Positions 30,370 through 42,494 of a stretch of DNA of 64,000 bases are shown in pieces (the stretch's first letter is position 1; each line of letters begins with the position of its first letter). The notes under the pieces were generated by a model. The model searched no databases. It had not been told where the DNA came from and saw nothing but the letters and a program-made list of their open reading frames with translations. Made by a program: the position numbers and the translations under genes. Source of the DNA: Spirochaetia bacterium (GTDB lineage Bacteria; Spirochaetota; Spirochaetia; DSM-2461); the NCBI GenBank assembly GCA_963668315.1, contig OY764216.1, forward strand, positions 1,024,001-1,088,000. The letters run 5' to 3'.

Positions 30370-31419
30370 CTACTTGGCTGCCTTGACCTCGGTCCAGATC
30401 CTGTCCAGAACCTGGTTGAAATCGCCCAGATCGGTAAAAACCTCGCAGTTGTCAATGACGGCGGAAGGGGGATAGATCGCCGGATCGTTCCGGGTTTCCC
30501 CATCAAGCTGCTCCACGACCGAGGGAAGGGGAGAGGCGTACCCGATATATTCGGCGTTACGTTTGGCAATGTCTTCCCGGCAGAGAAAGTTCAGGAATTG
30601 ATGGGCCAGTTCCTTGTTCTCCGAATTCTCCAGAATCACCCAGTTGTCAAACCAGATATTTGAACCTTCGGAGGGAACGGCGTAATTCAGGTCGGGAAAA
30701 TCCTCGATGACCCACCCGTAGTCTCCCGAGTACACCAGAGCCATGTCCAGCTCGCCTCCGGAAACCATCTCCTTCAGGTTATCCTCTCCGTAAACAAGAA
30801 CCTTGTCCTTCTGGTCGATGAGAAGCCGCTGCGCCTCGGCGAGCTGCGATTCATCGGTGGTGTTGACCGAGTAGCCCAGAAGCTTGAGGGCGGGCACGAG
30901 GGAGTCCCGGGCGCTGTTGTACATCCCGATTCTTCCGGCGTATTTGTCACTCCAGAGCAGGGACCAGCTGTCCACCGGTTCGGAAACGGTTTCACTGTTA
31001 TAGAGAATTCCCAGGGTCCCCCACATATAGGGGAGGGAGTAGACGTTCTTGCCGTCGAAGGGAAGATCCATGAACCTTTTATCTATCAGGCTGCTGTTGG
31101 GCAGGGCGGAATAATCCAGTTTCGCCAGCATGCCTTCTTTTATCATCCTCTCCACCATGTAGTCTGAAGGACAGGCCAGATCGTAACTGTCCGCTCCCTG
31201 GTTGAGTTTGACGTACATCTCTTCGTTGGATGAGTAAAGGCTGTATACGACCTTGCAGCCCGTTTCCTTCTCGAAGTCGGTAATAATCGACTCGTCGATA
31301 TAGTCGCCCCAGTTATAAACGGACAGGACAGGTTTCTCGCTGCCCGAGCAGGACATCAGAATAAGGCTAACGAGTGCTGTCAGAATCACCGAACTCGTGT
31401 AAAAGTACTTCCTTTTCAA
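30370..31419 (-). CDS. potD: Spermidine/putrescine ABC substrate-binding lipoprotein
   Basis: 'YNWGDYID', 'PSDYM', 'PYMWGTLGILYN', 'PSEGSNIWFD'. Confidence 0.92.
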   Translation of the reverse strand: MKRKYFYTSSVILTALVSLILMSCSGSEKPVLSVYNWGDYIDESIITDFEKETGCKVVYSLYSSNEEMYVKLNQGADSYDLACPSDYMVERMIKEGMLAKLDYSALPNSSLIDKRFMDLPFDGKNVYSLPYMWGTLGILYNSETVSEPVDSWSLLWSDKYAGRIGMYNSARDSLVPALKLLGYSVNTTDESQLAEAQRLLIDQKDKVLVYGEDNLKEMVSGGELDMALVYSGDYGWVIEDFPDLNYAVPSEGSNIWFDNWVILENSENKELAHQFLNFLCREDIAKRNAEYIGYASPLPSVVEQLDGETRNDPAIYPPSAVIDNCEVFTDLGDFNQVLDRIWTEVKAAK

Positions 31420-32197
31420 TAGTATAATTCTCCTTTTTTCTATTCTTTCTGCCGTTGATCAGAACCAGTATCAGGAATATGACCGTTAGCAGCAGAGTGG
31501 ACAAAGCATTGATCTTGGGGTTTATTCCCCGACGCGCCATGGCGTAGACCACGATGGACACGTTGTTGACCCCCGAGCCGGTGGTGAAAAAGCTGATGAC
31601 GAAATCATCGATGGAGAGGGTGAACGAAATCAGCCAGGCCGTCATGATCGTCGCTTTGAGCTGGGGGAAGATGACCCTTCGCAGGCAGTACCAGGGAGTC
31701 GCTCCCAGATCCAGGGCGGCTTCCAGCTGGGATGAGGCCAGGCTGCGCATCTGGGGAAGCACGGTGATTATCACATAGGGTATGGAAAAGGAGAGATGGG
31801 CCAGAAGCAGCGTCCCGAATCCGAATTTGAGCCGGAAGAACAGGAAAAGGGTCATAAGGGAGATGCCCGTTACCAGATCGGGGTTGATGAGGGGAAGGTC
31901 ATTCACCTTCATAATCAGATTCCGGGGAGCCTTCTTGAAATGGATGATGCCCCAGCTGGAAAGGAGACCCGCGGCGACGGAGAGGGAGGAGGAGATGAGG
32001 GCGAGGATCAGCGTGGTCCTGAGGGCGCTCATGATCGTCCTGTCATTGAAGAGGGCCGCGTACCAGCGCAGGGAGAAGCCGGTCCAGTTCAGGGCCGATT
32101 TGGAATCGTTGAAGGAGTAGAGAATCAGAATCATGATGGGCAGGTAGAGAAAGACCAGGGCCAGCCCGATGAGGGAGCGGGATAAAAGGCGCTTCAT
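31367..32197 (-). CDS. potC: Spermidine/putrescine ABC permease
   Basis: 'YSFN', 'EAALDLGA', 'FTLSIDDF', 'PKINALST'. Confidence 0.92.
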   Translation of the reverse strand: MKRLLSRSLIGLALVFLYLPIMILILYSFNDSKSALNWTGFSLRWYAALFNDRTIMSALRTTLILALISSSLSVAAGLLSSWGIIHFKKAPRNLIMKVNDLPLINPDLVTGISLMTLFLFFRLKFGFGTLLLAHLSFSIPYVIITVLPQMRSLASSQLEAALDLGATPWYCLRRVIFPQLKATIMTAWLISFTLSIDDFVISFFTTGSGVNNVSIVVYAMARRGINPKINALSTLLLTVIFLILVLINGRKNRKKENYTIEKEVLLHEFGDSDSTR

Positions 32198-33024
32198 CGG
32201 ATATGCTCGCTTGACCTGTTCAGCCGGTTCATCAGGACCATGATCAGCATGATCACCGTGATGAGTATCAGGGAGATGGCGCTGCCGAAGGTTTCGTCGG
32301 CTGTCTTGAGGAACTGCTGCTCCACCAGGTTGCCGATCATCATATCCTGCCCGCCTCCGAGGATCACGGGAATGAGAAAGGTGCTCACCGAGGGCATGAA
32401 CGTCATGGTTATGCCCGAGAAGATTCCCGGAAGGGCCAGGGGGAGGATCACTTTCAGCTGAAGCCTGAGCTGGTGGGAACCCAGATCCCGCGCCGCCTCG
32501 ATCAGCCTTTTATCGATTTTGATCAGGGAATTCAGGATGGGCAGGACCATGAAGGGGAGGAAATTGTACACCATTCCCAGAAGCACGGCCCCCCGGGTGT
32601 AGAGAATCTCCACAGGCTGGGCGCCCAGGAAGGTCAGAATCCCGTTCAGAAGGCCGTCATGGCGCAGGATCGGTTTCCAGGCATAGGTTTTGATGAGGAA
32701 ATTGATCCACATGGGAACCATGAGAAGGAGCATCAGAAGGTTTCTTGTCTCCTTCTGTTCTCTGCTCACCGCCAGAGCCAGCGGATAGGCGACGATCAGA
32801 CAAATCAGCGTGGCCGCCGCAGCCATGGCCAGTGAGAAGCCCAGAATATTCAGATACAGGGGATCGAAAAACGTCCGGTATCCCCTCAGGGTAAGGACAA
32901 ACTTTCCCGTCTCCTTGAGCGGTTCCGTCAGGCTGAAGAGAAGGATAAGAAGGAGGGGAAAGAGTATCAGAACGGCAGACCAGAGAACGTAGGGCAGGCC
33001 GTACCAGTGGTAACGGGTCTTCAA
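32194..33024 (-). CDS. potB: Spermidine/putrescine ABC permease
   Basis: 'PMWINFL.KTYAW', 'YNFLPFMVLP', 'EAARDLG'. Confidence 0.92.
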   Translation of the reverse strand: MKTRYHWYGLPYVLWSAVLILFPLLLILLFSLTEPLKETGKFVLTLRGYRTFFDPLYLNILGFSLAMAAAATLICLIVAYPLALAVSREQKETRNLLMLLLMVPMWINFLIKTYAWKPILRHDGLLNGILTFLGAQPVEILYTRGAVLLGMVYNFLPFMVLPILNSLIKIDKRLIEAARDLGSHQLRLQLKVILPLALPGIFSGITMTFMPSVSTFLIPVILGGGQDMMIGNLVEQQFLKTADETFGSAISLILITVIMLIMVLMNRLNRSSEHIR

Positions 33025-33027
33025 TTC

Positions 33028-34092
33028 TCAGGTCTCCTCGAACATTACATGAATGGCATCCGGTTCAATGAGCATCTCCACATTCTCTCCCGGTTCCGCC
33101 TTGGCCGTACTGTGGATAAGCCATGTCCGGTCGCCCGATTCCACGGTCATTTCCCAGTGGACTCCCTTGAACAGGTTTGAAAGGACCCGCCCGGGGAGAA
33201 CATTCTCCCCCGGGGAGGAAGAGGAGGGAGACCTGAGGATTATATCCTCCGGCCGGATAACCACGCGGGGCTGGAAGTCTCCCTGTCTGAGGGTGTCGAC
33301 GCAGAGGAAATCCCGTCCGCAGAATTCCACCTGGCGATCGCCGGACATCCGGGCATCAAGTATATTGCTTTCTCCCACAAAGGAGGCCACGAAGGTATTC
33401 CGGGGCTCATTGTAGATATCCTCGGGGGTGCCCCACTGCTGCAGCCGGCCCTCGTTCATAACGGCGATACGGTCGGAGAGGGAGAGGGCTTCCTCCTGGT
33501 CGTGGGTGATATAGAGAAAGGTAATTCCCACCTGCTGCTGGATCCTTTTCAGCTCCCGCTGCATATTCTGGCGCAGCTTGAGGTCAAGAGCTCCGAGGGG
33601 CTCGTCAAGCAGGAGAAGGGAGGGATGGTTCACCAGGGCCCGGGCTATGGCCACACGCTGCTGCTGGCCGCCCGAAAGGGATTGAATCGGCCGCTTTTCT
33701 AGGCCGGGCAGATTGACCAGCTCCAGCATCTCCGACGTCATCCGCCGTATGTGCCTGCGGTCTTTCCCGGCGCATTCCATTCCGAAGGCAATGTTCTCGC
33801 CGACGGACAAATGGGGAAAGAGAGCGTATTGCTGAAAAACTGTATTGACCGGCCGCTTGTGGGGGGGGATCGGGTTCATGGACTTGCCTTCCATGATAAT
33901 GGCTCCGCCATCCGGTTCTTCGAAGCCGCCGATCATGCGCAGAGTCGTCGTCTTTCCGCAGCCGCTCGGTCCCAGGAGTGAAACGAAATCACCCTTCGCC
34001 AGGCTCAGGTTAAGAGAATCAACCGCTTTATTTTCACCGTCATAGGATTTGGTCAGGTTCTCCAGTTCTAGGAGAATCTTTTCTTCCCTCAA
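33028..34092 (-). CDS. potA: Spermidine/putrescine ABC ATP-binding protein
   Basis: [31 protein letters not shown]-like end; TTG start overlaps upstream stop. Confidence 0.93.
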
Positions 34093-34334
34093 GAATCCTC
34101 GTCTCCGTAGTCTTCGTCATCGGACGCCACCTCGACCAGATCTTCCTGTAGAGCCAGGGCCAGTTCGTCGGGGTATTCGCTTAATTCGTCAATGGGAATA
34201 TCGTATAGCTTGTATTTTTCAAGAGGATTCTCTTCTTTAAGATAGAAACGCTCTTCCTGAGCTCTGTCTCTGTCGGAAAAGACACAGATGGCTTCCCCGT
34301 TTTCAGAAATAAACCACAAGGATTCTTCGGTCAT
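34089..34334 (-). CDS. Small acidic protein (paralog 1), first gene of the pot operon
   Basis: AAGGA RBS; TGA overlaps potA TTG; homologous to 34847..35053. Confidence 0.75.
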   Translation of the reverse strand: MTEESLWFISENGEAICVFSDRDRAQEERFYLKEENPLEKYKLYDIPIDELSEYPDELALALQEDLVEVASDDEDYGDEDS

Positions 34335-34552
34335 GACCCCGTCCTTATCGGAGCAGGGCAGGAAAGCTAACGGTCACTCGCATACGAGGGTGGTTCCCCC
34401 ATGAGGCGAAAATCCCGGGAACCCTGCTGTCGCATAGGATTCCGTGCTGCACAACTCCGAAACACACCGCCCGTAATCTTGTGTCCGGGCGCATAAGCAA
34501 AGAAGATGACAGCAGACTTCCGTTAGCATACAGGGTCCGTAGGTCTGCAGCT
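34335..34552 (-). ncRNA. Candidate cis-regulatory leader RNA (copy 1)
   Basis: GCAGAC-[CTACGGACCCTGTATGCTAACGGAA]-GTCTGC hairpin, then ATCTTCTTTG and AGTTGTGCAG blocks shared with copy 2. Confidence 0.6.
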
Positions 34553-34687
34553 CACAATCGTCAACAACGATAAATGAGTTGAATTAGATATAGTACGTGG
34601 AACAACGTTCTGTCAAGGTTTTTATCTAAGAAAAATAGTGAACTTATTGACCTAGAGAGCGTTTTAAGGGTATAAGCCTCATATACA

Positions 34688-34846
34688 GAGCAGACAAAGG
34701 ACCCTCCATGCTAACAATGTCTGCTTATATCTTTTGTTCTTGGAAGGAAGAATCCCCTCGGGGCTTCAGAAAAGGTATAAGTGGTGCAGTGTGGTTCTCC
34801 CCGGTCCGGGTTTCCCCTCCCCCTCCATCCTTCCCGGGAGGACTTA
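34688..34846 (+). ncRNA. Candidate cis-regulatory leader RNA (copy 2)
   Basis: GCAGAC-[AAAGGACCCTCCATGCTAACAAT]-GTCTGC hairpin, ATCTTTTG and AGTGGTGCAG blocks; downstream of TTGACC-N18-TATAAG (34647-34676). Confidence 0.6.
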
Positions 34847-35053
34847 ATGGCAAAAAAAGATTTCTGGTTTGTCTCCAACGGTATACAGGTTTTGAATGTA
34901 TTCACAAAAAAAGAGGAGGGTGAATCCTTTCTCAATAAGTATAAAGACGATCCTGATTTCGAATATTACTACCTTTATTCCCTGTTTGAGTCTGATCTGG
35001 ACGATTACCCGGATGAATATGAACTGCTCCTCTCCAGAGAGCTTCTAGAGTAG
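34847..35053 (+). CDS. Small acidic protein (paralog 2)
   Basis: GGAGG RBS; shares WF(I/V)S, VF, YxLY, YPDE with 34089..34334. Confidence 0.75.
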   Translation: MAKKDFWFVSNGIQVLNVFTKKEEGESFLNKYKDDPDFEYYYLYSLFESDLDDYPDEYELLLSRELLE

Positions 35054-35193: not shown

Positions 35194-36039
35194 ATGAACA
35201 GAGAATACAGAGAGATAAATACGTCCTCCGGACTGGCAGCCTACAGAAAAGAACTGGGAGAGAGGCAGATCGGGAAGATCGCCATGGATTTTGAAGCGGA
35301 ATTCAACCTGCACGTGTACGGAGAGCATCTCTGCCTTATACAGGTTTTTGACGGAAGGGATTATCTTCTCATAGATCCGGTGAAAATCGACCCGGCCGAA
35401 CTGAAGGCTTTTCTGGAGATGAAGAGCCCGGTCAAGCTCTTTTTCGGAGCCGATTCGGACAAGATGCTTGTCTATAAGCAGTACGGCATAAAGATCGCCT
35501 CCCTTTTTGATGTCCAGATTCTGGCGGAAGTACTGGAGCTTGAGAAAAAAGGCCTGGACAGCGTACTTTTCTCCCAGCTGGGGGTGGAAGTGGAAAAGAA
35601 AAAAAAGTTCCAGCAGTACAACTGGTTCAGACGTCCCCTGGAAGACGAGGCCAAGGCATACGCTCTGGGAGATGTGGAATATCTCTTCAATCTGAGCGAA
35701 GTGATGATGAAGAAGATCGTCGAGAAAAACCTGGTCGAAGAGATGGCTTTTCGTATAGCCTCAAGCCACCTGGATTACGACAGGAAGACGGTTCCCGGCA
35801 TTTTCAAAACCCCGGCCTATAAGAAAATGTCAAAAAAGGCGAAGGAAGCCTATGCCCGTGCTGTGGATATCAGGGAGGAGATTGCCAAAGAGGTGAACTG
35901 CCCTCCCAATACGGTTCTGACCAAGCAGGACCTGGCGGATATCGCCTATGACAGAGGAGCTATCCAGCGGATCCGTTTCAATAAGAGACTTCCCGAATCG
36001 GCCAGGAACAAGCTCAGGGAGAGGATCCTGGGGGATTAG
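35194..36039 (+). CDS. Ribonuclease D-like 3'-5' exonuclease with HRDC domain
   Basis: 'AMDFE', 'LCLIQV', 'FDVQI', 'W..RPL', 'YALGDV'; 'RE.IAK..N.PP..VL'. Confidence 0.85.
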   Translation: MNREYREINTSSGLAAYRKELGERQIGKIAMDFEAEFNLHVYGEHLCLIQVFDGRDYLLIDPVKIDPAELKAFLEMKSPVKLFFGADSDKMLVYKQYGIKIASLFDVQILAEVLELEKKGLDSVLFSQLGVEVEKKKKFQQYNWFRRPLEDEAKAYALGDVEYLFNLSEVMMKKIVEKNLVEEMAFRIASSHLDYDRKTVPGIFKTPAYKKMSKKAKEAYARAVDIREEIAKEVNCPPNTVLTKQDLADIAYDRGAIQRIRFNKRLPESARNKLRERILGD

Positions 36040-39244: not shown

Positions 39245-39345
39245 TACGGCAAGTGTGTGTATCTGGCTTAAGGAAGCTTTTTCCTATCACAGTGACGCGA
39301 TCGCGGAGGATTCTCACCTCCTTCCATTGACAGATGCCGTTGTCG
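39245..39345 (-). ncRNA. Cobalamin riboswitch (compact form)
   Basis: Minus strand: ACGGCA...ATGGAAGGAGGTGAGAATCCTCCGCGATCGCGTCACTGTGA...AAGCCAGATAC...TGCCGT; promoter TTGACA-N17-TATTCT at 39380-39352. Confidence 0.85.
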
Positions 39346-39429
39346 TGTCCAAGAATACCGGTATCCCGGGGGAGTGTCAAGTTTTCGGACATTATGTATA
39401 ATCAGCATAAAAGAGCATTGGGAGAATTC

Positions 39430-41451
39430 ATGCGTATCGACAGACCCGGTCTGTTATTTATTATGGTACTTTTATCCTCGAAAATCCTTATTACGGCGGA
39501 AGATGAGCCGGAGAGGATCGTTATAACCGCCGAGGCCGAACCGGCCGATCCCCGCTCCGTTTCTTCCCAGGTGACCGTGGTGACCGAAGAGGAAATCAAG
39601 GCTTCGGGCGCCCGGAACGCCGGAGAAGTGCTCGCCTCCGTAGTGGGGGTTCAGACCGTCCGTTACGGCGGCTTGACCCAGCCCGTTCTGGTTTCTATCC
39701 GAGGTTCGTCCCCTGAGCAGGTGCTGGTGCTGGTTGACGGCAAGCGGCTGAATTCCGCCCAGGGGGGCGGGGTGGATTTTTCCACGATCAATCCCGACGA
39801 TATCGAGAGGATCGAGGTCATAAGGGGGGGAGCCTCCGCCCTGTATGGCGAAAACGCCCTGGGAGGCGTGGTCAACATCATTATGAAGGACGGAGCGGGG
39901 GAAGACTTCGCCCTGGCCGTAAAGGGCTCCGTAGGTTCTCTGGAAACCTGTGAAGGGGGAGGGCAGATCCAGGGCGGCTTTAACGAAGGGAAGGGGAACT
40001 ATTTTTTCTCCCTTTCCGCTCTGAGAACCGGAGGCAGTTACACCTACGCCAACGAGCATGAGGACGACGGAACGGCCGAATTCGTCAATAGCGACGGCAG
40101 CAGCCTGAACGGTTCAATCAAAACAGGCTATCATATTTCCTCTTCTCTGCAGCTGAATCTGAACGGGCAGTACCATCTTGATGAGAAGGGAGTCCCCGGT
40201 ACGGTAGAGTTCCCCTCGGAGAACGCCCGCATGGCGGATCACCGGTTCGTCACGGGCGGCGGTGTTCTCTGGGATACGCCGATGGGCGCCTGGGAGGGAA
40301 GCCTTTCTATCATCAAGCAGACCCGCCATTATGAGGACCCCGATTTCTATCTGGGGGCGGTGGATGATTTCCACGACAACACAGCTTTGAGCGGGGAGTT
40401 GCTCTGGTCCCGGGAAGACGTTTTTTCCCGGTTCAGCCTCTCCCAGAACGCGGGCTACTCCCTGCGCGGAGACAGTCTGCAGTCATCCGCTCTGATCAAG
40501 TCATCCGGACTATCCGAAGGAGACGGAACCGTTTCCCGTATTCAGCATTCCCTGTATTACCGGTCCCAATGGGGATTCTTTCCCCGGGAGGAAGGGGAGC
40601 CCTCGGTTCTCTCCCTTTTTCCCGCCCTCCGCTACGACTGGAGCCGCGTCAGGTTTGACGATGAGGATCTGGTCAAGACAAGCGATGCTCCCTCCTGGAA
40701 TCTGGGAATCAATATCTCGGTGGATAGGCAGCAGAAAATTGTCCTGAAGGGGAACGGGGGGTACTCCTACCGGGCTCCTTCCTTTGATGACCTTTTCTGG
40801 CCCTCTTCTTCTTTCGCCGTGGGGAATCCCGATCTGGAACCGGAGGAGGCACTGATCTTTGACGGGGGTGTCCTTCTGAAGCCCCTGACCTGGATGTCCC
40901 TGGAGGCGGTCTATTTCTACCACGACGTGACCAACCTGATTCAGTGGAATCCCGGAGCATTCGGTCAGTGGCGGCCCCGTAATCTCGCTTCCGCCCGGAT
41001 TCAGGGTTTCGAGGGGGAGTGCTCCCTGCTGATTGACCTCTCCTTTATGAACTGTTATTCCGAAGTCAAAGGGAATATGACCCTGCTCTACGCTTTCGAT
41101 ACCACGGAAGACTCGGTCACTTACGGTATGTTCCTGCCCCGCCGGGCTCCCTATCAGTTCAACGGCATTGTCTCCCTGAATCACTATGACGGGCACTTCA
41201 TCCGCCTGGAGGGACGTGCTGTTTCCCCCCGGTATATAACCGCGCAGAATACGAAATATCTGGAGGGATATTTTATTCTGGATCTTAATGTGAACGCCCA
41301 GATAAGGGAGAACTGGTACGTCAATATGGCCGTAAAGAATCTATTGAACCAGTCCTATGTGGATATTCAGGATTACCCGGTGCCGGGAGTGGAATTTTAC
41401 GTGGGAACCGGCTGGAATTACAAGCCGGAATCGGGGGAAGGGAAAAAATGA
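39430..41451 (+). CDS. TonB-dependent receptor, BtuB-like
   Basis: TonB-box-like 'ERIVITA', plug 'IRGS..EQVLVLVDG', 'IERIEVIRG..SALYG.NALGGVVNII', 'GNPDLEPE', 'KNLLNQSY'. Confidence 0.9.
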   Translation: MRIDRPGLLFIMVLLSSKILITAEDEPERIVITAEAEPADPRSVSSQVTVVTEEEIKASGARNAGEVLASVVGVQTVRYGGLTQPVLVSIRGSSPEQVLVLVDGKRLNSAQGGGVDFSTINPDDIERIEVIRGGASALYGENALGGVVNIIMKDGAGEDFALAVKGSVGSLETCEGGGQIQGGFNEGKGNYFFSLSALRTGGSYTYANEHEDDGTAEFVNSDGSSLNGSIKTGYHISSSLQLNLNGQYHLDEKGVPGTVEFPSENARMADHRFVTGGGVLWDTPMGAWEGSLSIIKQTRHYEDPDFYLGAVDDFHDNTALSGELLWSREDVFSRFSLSQNAGYSLRGDSLQSSALIKSSGLSEGDGTVSRIQHSLYYRSQWGFFPREEGEPSVLSLFPALRYDWSRVRFDDEDLVKTSDAPSWNLGINISVDRQQKIVLKGNGGYSYRAPSFDDLFWPSSSFAVGNPDLEPEEALIFDGGVLLKPLTWMSLEAVYFYHDVTNLIQWNPGAFGQWRPRNLASARIQGFEGECSLLIDLSFMNCYSEVKGNMTLLYAFDTTEDSVTYGMFLPRRAPYQFNGIVSLNHYDGHFIRLEGRAVSPRYITAQNTKYLEGYFILDLNVNAQIRENWYVNMAVKNLLNQSYVDIQDYPVPGVEFYVGTGWNYKPESGEGKK

Positions 41452-42494
41452 AAATCCGATTCGTTTCTATTACGGCTGTGCTGCTCTTTTTCTCTTCCTG
41501 CTATCAAATTACCAGTATCAACACCGGTCGGTCTTTTCCCGATTACGAGCGGGAGTTTTTTGTCCTTAACGGATTGGCCGAGACCGTTTCCGTCCTGGAA
41601 CCCTCCTATCTGCGGCTCCATGATGACGCTTTTCTTACCGGAAGCGCCCCGAACCATATCCTTTACCGGAATGATTTGTTATATGTGACCAATTCGACAG
41701 ACAACAGCATTACCATTTATAATGAAACGACCCTGGAAAAGTCCGATGAGATTTATCTTGGCTCAAACCGTAATCCCTGGATGGTCATCGAGGCGGAAGG
41801 GACAGGCTGCGGGTATGTGCCGAACTTCGTCGCCGGCACCGTTTCCATCATCGATTTCGGGAGCGGCGATATCCTTGATGAAATTTCCGTGGGTAACGGA
41901 CCGGAAGGAGGCTGCTATATGAATGGCTATGTCTTTGTCGCCAATACCAATTACGACGCCGATACTTTTACCTTCGGGGAGGGTTCTGTCTCTATCATCG
42001 ATACTGCCGATAACAGTGTGATCGAAACGGTGTCCATGGGAGTGGGAAGTGATCCCCAGTCCATTCTGGCCTTTCCCGATAAGAATGAGGTCCATGTTAT
42101 CCTTACGGGAGAATATACCGAAGATGACGGGGCTGTCGTTGTTCTGGACGGGACCACATTTACCGAGAAAACCCGATTGGCCATTGGGGGTTCTCCCGTG
42201 GGTACACCGGGAAGCATTGACCGTGACAACTCACTGGTATATCTGTGCGGAACGGCGGGTATCATGTCTTACGATTATGAAAATCTGACGGTCGTCCATG
42301 GATCGGACGACTATATTCTGGCTTCGGGAGGAGACACGTACATGGATGCGGCCGTTGATCCTGTCAGCGGGATCATCCTGGTGGCGGACTTTTCCCAAAG
42401 CGAAATTATCGTGCTCGACAATACCGACTATTCTGAGATCGAAACGATTCAGGGGTCCGATGGTGTCCAGAAATTCTTCCTTGTTGCGGAATAG
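41448..42494 (+). CDS. Beta-propeller lipoprotein (YncE/BtuG-like)
   Basis: Lipobox 'FSSC'; repeated blades 'LYVTNS', 'VSIID', 'VGNGPEG'. Confidence 0.8.
   Translation: MKIRFVSITAVLLFFSSCYQITSINTGRSFPDYEREFFVLNGLAETVSVLEPSYLRLHDDAFLTGSAPNHILYRNDLLYVTNSTDNSITIYNETTLEKSDEIYLGSNRNPWMVIEAEGTGCGYVPNFVAGTVSIIDFGSGDILDEISVGNGPEGGCYMNGYVFVANTNYDADTFTFGEGSVSIIDTADNSVIETVSMGVGSDPQSILAFPDKNEVHVILTGEYTEDDGAVVVLDGTTFTEKTRLAIGGSPVGTPGSIDRDNSLVYLCGTAGIMSYDYENLTVVHGSDDYILASGGDTYMDAAVDPVSGIILVADFSQSEIIVLDNTDYSEIETIQGSDGVQKFFLVAE

Follow-up and report, generated by a model that had tools for sequence, protein, structure and literature searches.

To our knowledge, the way in which bacteria sense their need for polyamines is largely open, and we know of no ligand for the ldcC motif, a leader RNA of polyamine-related genes. 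The available part of Weinberg et al. (2017; PMC5737381) presents this motif (RF02440, SpF59) as an orphan leader of arginine, ornithine and SAM decarboxylases and of potA, describes it as a bulged hairpin and includes two spirochaete species. The spermidine riboswitch is, as far as the accessible text of Salvail et al. (2023; PMC10853860) goes, a SAM-I variant with a terminator that acts as a rare OFF switch on synthesis genes. Two further orphan motifs found 5' of polyamine genes, potE and odc1, are given for Veillonella and Alphaproteobacteria only in the accessible portion of Brewer et al. (2021; PMC8632094), where odc1 appears as a large-loop hairpin with a conserved uORF.

Here we describe a spirochaete cis-regulatory RNA with a switch architecture and a repeated link to polyamine genes, which is real and apparently undescribed.

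Two divergent leaders with the same hairpin

In the window, by which we mean the whole 64,000-nucleotide stretch of DNA that was analysed, a sequence-only reading had noticed one motif in two leaders transcribed back to back, one of them ahead of a polyamine transporter, and had proposed a polyamine-responsive riboswitch, a translational attenuator or a protein-binding leader. Both copies were found again, on opposite strands, as were the promoter hexamers ahead of them (TTGACA at 34616-34611 and TTGACC-N18-TATAAG at 34647-34676), and the gene order small gene-potA-potB-potC-potD proved correct, with assignments that are best NCBIfam matches below the cut-offs. A strict sigma-70 scan scored neither window promoter. 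The features of the locus are the following.

30370..34092 (-): potA-potB-potC-potD, spermidine/putrescine-type ABC importer (Pfam; best NCBIfam matches, under cut-off)
34089..34334 (-): gene for an acidic 81-aa small protein of net charge -21, with a stop that overlaps the start of potA
34335..34365 (-): predicted hairpin enclosing the ribosome-binding site AAGGA (34346-34342)
34418..34426 (-): CAGGGUUCC, complement of the loop sequence GGACCCUG in the predicted alternative fold
34444..34511 (-): P2 and variable insert; the 3' end GGAGUUGUGCAGCAC reaches into the 3' strand of P1 and is the predicted anti-aptamer
34512..34548 (-): hairpin copy 1, minus type; P1 GCAGAC/GUCUGC, small internal loop, G-C closing pair, loop GACCC-UGU-AUGCUAA
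34550..34580 (-): optional 5' hairpin P0, loop UGUUG (predicted fold; minus-type relatives read by eye)
34611..34616 (-): TTGACA, -35 hexamer of the minus transcript, from the sequence; putative start near 34581
34647..34676 (+): promoter TTGACC-N18-TATAAG, from the sequence; spaced alike in 31 of the 33 plus-type relatives
34690..34724 (+): hairpin copy 2, plus type; P1, G-C closing pair, loop GACCC-UCC-AUGCUAA
34725..34780 (+): P2, UUAUAUCUUU paired with AAAGGUAUAA, and variable insert (alignment)
34781..34794 (+): tail GUGGUGCAGUGUGG, a predicted pairing partner of both the P1 3' strand and the loop
34836..34842 (+): ribosome-binding site GGGAGGA, from the sequence
34847..35053 (+): gene for a small acidic protein, 68 aa, paralog of the small gene on the minus strand

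In the minus copy, GCAGAC occupies positions 34548-34543, the loop GGACCC-TGT-ATGCTAAC positions 34538-34522 and GTCTGC positions 34517-34512; the corresponding elements of the plus copy are located at 34690-34695, 34699-34715 (GGACCC-TCC-ATGCTAAC) and 34719-34724. The shared 17-mer GGACCCNNNATGCTAAC, with at most one mismatch, occurs twice in the window versus an expectation of 0.02, a number reached in none of 100 shuffles, and its exact form is present in the 5.6-Mb genome at the two window sites only. The sequence-only reading had overlooked that the plus copy also heads a small gene, whose product is a paralog of the minus one (27% over 56 aa), and that the genome contains a third copy (G000:C1:4983969-4984003, plus strand), which lies 145 nt 5' of a SET-domain gene and has AAG in place of AUG in its loop. 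The twin divergent arrangement is also encountered in two of three genomes of the same genus. Since the two window copies are of different subtypes, each closer to copies from other genera than to one another, we infer that the twin pair is probably old and not the product of a recent duplication.

Structure and conservation of the motif

In the core of the motif, a small internal loop separates P1 (GCAGAC/GUCUGC) from a G-C pair, which closes a 15-nt loop with the consensus GA(C/A)CC-N3-A(U/A)-GCUAA, the loop length varying between 15 and 17 nt among copies. The P1 hairpin is 5'-proximal and usually followed by P2 and then by a tail able to displace P1. In 31 of 33 plus-type relatives a TTGAC sequence is found 43-49 nt 5' of the motif, a spacing which indicates that P1 begins about ten bases into the transcript. 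Minus-type leaders possess P0 with altered stems, as judged by eye from the upstream sequences of the relatives.

In an alignment of 43 sequences, 91.1% of the cells of the named structure are paired, a value matched by none of 500 shuffles, and controls in which the structure was slid along the sequence gave 29-49%. In this set, the closing pair changes from G-C to C-G in two copies, the first P1 pair varies between G-C, A-U and G-U (six copies changed) and the last P1 pair is changed in one; true two-sided changes are few and confined to these three pairs, the other four of the six P1 pairs being invariant and fixed by the search pattern. Copies that were found by way of the small protein show extra G-U pairs in P1 (three) and one further change from C-G to U-A. 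For plus-type P2, whose 3' arm was located with a pattern permitting A or G, 232 of 297 cells are Watson-Crick pairs, 59 are G-U, none is A-C and 6 are mismatches, and the occurrence of G-U without A-C indicates pairing on the transcribed strand. Ten of the 15 positions in the loop show little or no variation, the middle of the loop being variable, and the loop ends resemble what we take to be the UAA/GAN internal-loop module. Single-sequence folds were no more stable than those of shuffled sequences (z from -0.8 to +1.9). As would be expected for a riboswitch, the motif is a conserved and structured 5'-leader element on the transcribed strand. Its position after the promoter, the pairing in P1, in P2 and of the closing pair, and its gene associations are demonstrated.

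Comparison with described RNA families

The sequence-only reading had not been able to match the motif to a named family, and the search of Rfam 15 agrees, with nothing at either window copy and no family over any motif site in the window and 29 homolog loci (E up to 5-10). The motif is not described in the literature that was searched; the supplementary catalogues of PMC5737381, PMC8632094 and PMC11109978 lie outside this scope and could hold it. In the main text of PMC11109978 terms related to the motif are absent, and the available parts of PMC10265488, PMC10907184 and one bioRxiv preprint add nothing on it.

With ldcC the motif shares its placement 5' of decarboxylases or potA (17 of 69 copies). 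However, the ldcC consensus, with its core GGCCAUACGGACAGCC, has nothing in common with the motif, and membership in RF02440 was excluded, as there was no match to the window copies at E up to 10 and the conserved bulge GGCCAUACGGACAGCC is absent. In the 38 genomes of the family, the RF02440 model did not exceed its cut-off once, and none of the matches listed fell on a motif site. An ldcC-like RNA was seen at L115:1501-1573 (-), which is G032:C9:214450-214522; it scores 26.4 bits, under the cut-off of 37.2, with the core and the 3' end well matched, and is situated about 450 nt 5' of two ORFs that by eye are HU/IHF-like, with no decarboxylase.

The spermidine riboswitch resembles the motif in being a leader of polyamine-synthesis genes, but it has a SAM-I fold and a terminator; no SAM-I match was obtained for the motif, and the window leaders showed no terminator. 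Similarly, potE and odc1 are leaders of polyamine genes, odc1 being a large-loop hairpin, but their descriptions, in the parts of the source that are available, set them apart from the motif by their other taxa and by the conserved uORF of odc1.

Another likeness, noticed after the fact, concerns the c-di-AMP (ydaO) riboswitch (RF00379), which also has a G-C-closed helix flanked by 5' GA(A/C)C and 3' (A)GCUAA; the loop ends of the motif match the RF00379 consensus beside P3 and the crystal construct shown in the available part of PMC5393176. The target classes overlap in part (potassium, osmotic, cell wall), and a diadenylate cyclase is encoded in this genome. However, the motif joins the two strands by a 5-nt loop and has neither the enclosed domain nor the pseudoknot nor either of the two three-way junctions, the RF00379 model gave no match at any motif copy, and the motif is predicted to be an ON switch, whereas the c-di-AMP riboswitch is an OFF switch. 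In PMC5393176, as far as available, the matching region is called a flexible 'bubble'. Because the match is post hoc, the remainder of the aptamer is missing and the region is flexible, we interpret the likeness as a shared module and not as membership in RF00379. Elsewhere, a possible divergent spirochaete c-di-AMP riboswitch was observed (L214:1501-1613, minus strand; G292), which scores 24.7 bits with RF00379 (cut-off 38).

Distribution among spirochaetes

Homologs exist well outside this locus: 69 distinct copies, many of which are kin, were collected from nine families of Spirochaetia. When the 37 other genomes of the family were searched with a model made from 33 copies, 19 proved to contain the motif, with one to four copies each, and 14 of the 34 loci that had been fetched via the small protein carried the motif, one of them in a weak form. 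With a second model, strong matches were obtained in nine families of the class and, in an even sample of the class, in 16 of 150 genomes, where three weak matches were judged to be chance. When a strict pattern was applied to a species-wide genome collection, all 18 stretches found were labelled as spirochaetal, including Oceanispirochaeta and Ca. Thalassospirochaeta. Scanning of metagenomes led to 24 stretches, of which 14 were kept and 10 were discarded as chance matches for their coding context and the lack of a promoter or P2. In 150 genomes sampled from the phylum nothing convincing was found (four weak matches were judged chance), and with the strict pattern there was no match in viral contigs and one, judged chance, in plasmids. 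The strict-pattern scans require a CAGA/UCUG stem, and relatives with other stems could escape them. On this genomic evidence, the motif is recurrent across free-living spirochaetes.

Genes downstream of the motif

For 64 of the 69 copies, at least 1.2 kb of downstream sequence was at hand. The association with polyamine supply genes suspected from the window recurred among the collected copies, 17 of the 69 heading such genes, either directly or behind a small gene: eight potA, eight speA, mostly accompanied by carboxyspermidine dehydrogenase and decarboxylase, and one pdaD-speB (pyruvoyl arginine decarboxylase and agmatinase). By eye, these fall into about five separate arrangements. The remaining 52 copies head no recognised polyamine gene. 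A small acidic gene comes first at 52 of the 69 copies, and a gene for an RRM protein is the second gene at seven. Other targets are a DUF1611-like P-loop protein with a GNAT protein (five copies), a threonine-synthase-like protein with DUF1611 (four), RimK-like proteins (four), MscS (four), S21 (four) and D-Ala-D-Ala-ligase-like proteins (two); trkH-trkA, DHH, AspA and SET genes follow a single copy each. In this genome, neither the speA-CASDH-CASDC-speB operon nor the RimK, DUF1611 and S21 genes are preceded by a copy.

At L099:3955-3995 (-), the motif heads a short DUF1611-like remnant followed by S21, and L111 has an intact DUF1611-like gene, GNAT and S21; the S21 link may stem from a deletion in a DUF1611-like/GNAT/S21 operon.

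The small acidic protein

The motif marks a family of small acidic spirochaete proteins without known function, with net charges between -6 and -24. For the 68-aa plus protein, a strand-strand-helix-strand-helix-helix fold is predicted with a pLDDT of 87.8. Foldseek returned no match, and thereby no relative of solved structure, at E 0.001, Atlas hits were 0.85 or less, and there was neither a Pfam family over its cut-off (DUF7336 remained below) nor an NCBIfam family. The protein, with 41 representatives at the 50% level, was found in 45 of 400 genomes of the class and is also encoded at loci that lack the motif; in G006 (96% complete), the motif is present and the small protein was not found.

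A paralog group of the small acidic gene (L182-L187, L189, L212 and L213) has short leaders devoid of the motif and precedes a gene whose product matches metallopeptidases weakly.

Computed alternative folds and access to the ribosome-binding site

Kinetically controlled translational riboswitches are arranged such that the aptamer is made first, the displacing strand later, and the ribosome-binding site (RBS) lies downstream. For the motif, the two folds that compete, the order in which they form as the RNA is made and the ON direction are computed, and all figures given here for the switch are nearest-neighbour computations on related sequences. When folding was followed on the growing transcript (37 clusters), the mean probability of P1 was 0.97 once P1 had been made and 0.85 at the end of P2; it then fell to 0.36 six bases past P2 and to 0.13 at fifteen. 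The real tail cost the hairpin more than a shuffled tail did in 43 of 51 leaders, by 4.1 kcal/mol on average (32 of 38 clusters; six of the 57 leaders were omitted from this test because the leader was short or P2 was not located), and the effect persisted in 42 of 51 leaders when the first 6 bases of the tail were kept. Loops paired with their own leaders better than foreign loops did in 27 of 43 clusters (p 0.008, a significance that, like that of the other tests, is overstated because the sequences are kin), and position-free duplexes between loop and leader were no better than with shuffles (31 of 57, p 0.41). The mutually exclusive folds that a riboswitch requires are thus predicted by computation.

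Holding the hairpin made the RBS easier to open in 36 of the 57 leaders and harder in five, in a test for which six start codons were set by eye. By cluster, the RBS was eased in 34 of 43 cases, with a small and parameter-dependent mean effect of -1.4 kcal/mol versus -0.1 with shuffled platforms, and real platforms were below shuffled ones in 29 of 40. With the minus window copy, three of the four span limits gave a gain of 2.4-3.2 kcal/mol and the remaining one gave zero, and there was no gain when its 5' extension was left out; the plus window copy showed no consistent gain. Coupling between fold change and RBS, as a riboswitch would show, is clear in aggregate and weak or absent for both window copies. 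The five minus-type leaders located 5' of pot operons gave values from 0 to +0.9 on holding the hairpin. For speA leaders the hairpin state was computed to be ON (-0.7 to -2.6 kcal/mol), and the three direct speA leaders lack a standard P2 and tail. The equilibrium fraction of the hairpin is nearly flat from 10 to 45 °C (0.22 to 0.16), and no intrinsic terminator was detected in the window leaders.

The three complementarities that the sequence-only reading had named all exist in the sequence. Pairing of GGACCCUG with CAGGGUUCC is part of the predicted alternative fold, and counterparts in eight other minus-type leaders amount to -7 to -13 kcal/mol as computed without a shuffle control. Pairing of GCUAACGG with CCGUUAGC is strong here (-13.2), but only here, as relatives reach -3.4 to -7.1. 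The CCUCC of the plus loop is indeed complementary to the RBS, but it makes use of the variable N3, and the predicted fold pairs the RBS with 34793-34800 instead.

A proposed ON switch and alternative explanations

We tentatively propose, from these models, that the leaders are copies of a spirochaete RNA that may function as a ligand-gated translational ON switch. The 5' hairpin P1 would fold first during transcription, and a small molecule or ion would hold it; without the ligand, the downstream tail would displace P1 and the RBS would become harder to open. The ligand would be read by the invariant loop ends, G-GA(C/A)CC and GCUAA-C, and perhaps docks on the sequence-conserved core of P2. 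As the loose alternative fold does not need the invariant loop ends, something likely reads the hairpin state, and since the computed effect of this state on synthesis and import genes is ON, the product polyamine is unlikely to be the stabiliser. The ligand is likely not a polyamine product but a signal of polycation need. A signal of ionic or osmotic nature is suggested by the kinds of genes involved (polyamine synthesis and import, amino-acid ligases, DUF1611/epimerase, MscS), and the candidate ligand that we name first is c-di-AMP. That the motif is a new and very small riboswitch class, in which a free-standing 'bubble' of the c-di-AMP riboswitch, on binding of c-di-AMP or a related adenine nucleotide, activates polyamine supply, amino-acid ligases and MscS, appears improbable to us, and the copy preceding trkH-trkA has the wrong sign for an ON switch operated by c-di-AMP.

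The same switch might be operated by a protein, e.g., an RRM protein, that binds the conserved loop and stabilises the hairpin, which we consider a serious, if less probable, possibility. In the recognition of hairpins by RRMs a single-stranded loop on a short stem suits protein binding, and the invariant single-stranded loop ends of the motif, carried by a short stem, would suit sequence-specific binding; RRM genes were present in five of five motif-bearing genomes tested and are the second gene at seven copies. However, none of the four RRM genes in this genome has a copy nearby. As for other protein readers, a cold-shock-domain protein was not found here or in two others of the five genomes, the strong acidity of the small protein and the failure to find it in motif-bearing G006 speak against it, and a CsrA-type reader is at odds with the loss of GGA in two copies (those with the C-G closing pair) and one more. 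From the interpretation first put forward, the new cis-regulatory RNA with switch-like alternative folds stands, but polyamine sensing has become doubtful. Polyamines would in that case be an OFF signal, binding the hairpin or favouring the long alternative helix; the 17 of 69 copies ahead of polyamine supply genes, the OFF action of the known spermidine riboswitch on synthesis genes (available text of PMC10853860) and a compact speA leader (L103), in which a 7-bp helix beside P1 covers the RBS, are consistent with this. We nevertheless think it unlikely, because the hairpin state is computed to be ON, speA leaders included, which is the wrong sign, because 52 of 69 copies are without a recognised polyamine gene and the genome's own speA operon is without a copy, and because the invariant loop would be unexplained if polyamines only favoured the long helix.

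Very improbable, in our opinion, is a kinetic or physical sensor (cold, ionic strength) that needs no ligand and whose first-folded hairpin would outlast under the inducing condition. The hairpin is a predicted folding intermediate, and RRM and S21 genes, which are cold-induced in cyanobacteria, are among the targets, but its equilibrium fraction barely changes between 10 and 45 °C, and thermosensors seldom need invariant loop bases of the kind present in the motif. Translational attenuation via a small ORF starting at the loop AUG is hardly credible: an AUG is retained in 39 of 57 loops, often 6-7 nt past an AGGA-like stretch, but missing in 18, and in 13 of the 57 it is replaced by AAG, ACG or AGG, which are incapable of starting. 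Neither reading frame nor length is retained: the uORFs have 3 to more than 115 codons, occupy all three frames and are shifted in frame by indels in the internal loop, so that the conserved start, frame and peptide of a leader-peptide attenuator were not found and a functional start at the loop AUG was not upheld. Equally remote is that the inverted repeat GCAGAC-N22-25-GTCTGC, directly 3' of the promoter, is a DNA operator, or that P1 and a U-rich arm form a terminator, although a U-rich run 1-6 nt past P1 is present in 13 of 57 leaders. The spacer of the repeat varies, only on the transcribed strand do the changes preserve pairing as G-U, the U-rich run belongs to P2 as its paired arm, and a displacing tail 3' of a terminator would be useless. 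Even jointly, uORF, operator and terminator are very unlikely explanations.

If the proposed ON switch is ligand-gated, the motif would constitute a new class of riboswitch whose core (about 35 nt and one helix) is among the smallest, and the alignment of 69 copies with natural variants, together with a visible expression platform, makes it testable at once. If true, an ON switch acting on both synthesis and import of polyamines would expose a different signal. A junction in common with the c-di-AMP aptamer would show either that RNA modules can be reused or that an aptamer arose by trimming, and the c-di-AMP reading, if true, would connect the polycation balance of spirochaetes with their second-messenger or turgor state.

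Other features of the loci

Downstream (3') of the plus small gene, positions 35194-36039 (+) of the window encode a 3'-5' exonuclease with an HRDC domain (RNase D-like), and one congener shows the same order. Further along, 39334-42494 (+) contains a 705-aa ORF, by eye TonB-dependent-receptor-like, followed by a repeat-rich ORF. In a congener (L016:1670-1710, plus strand), the plus copy is remodelled, the loop having turned into a GGC/GCC stem, with the RBS directly 3' of P2.
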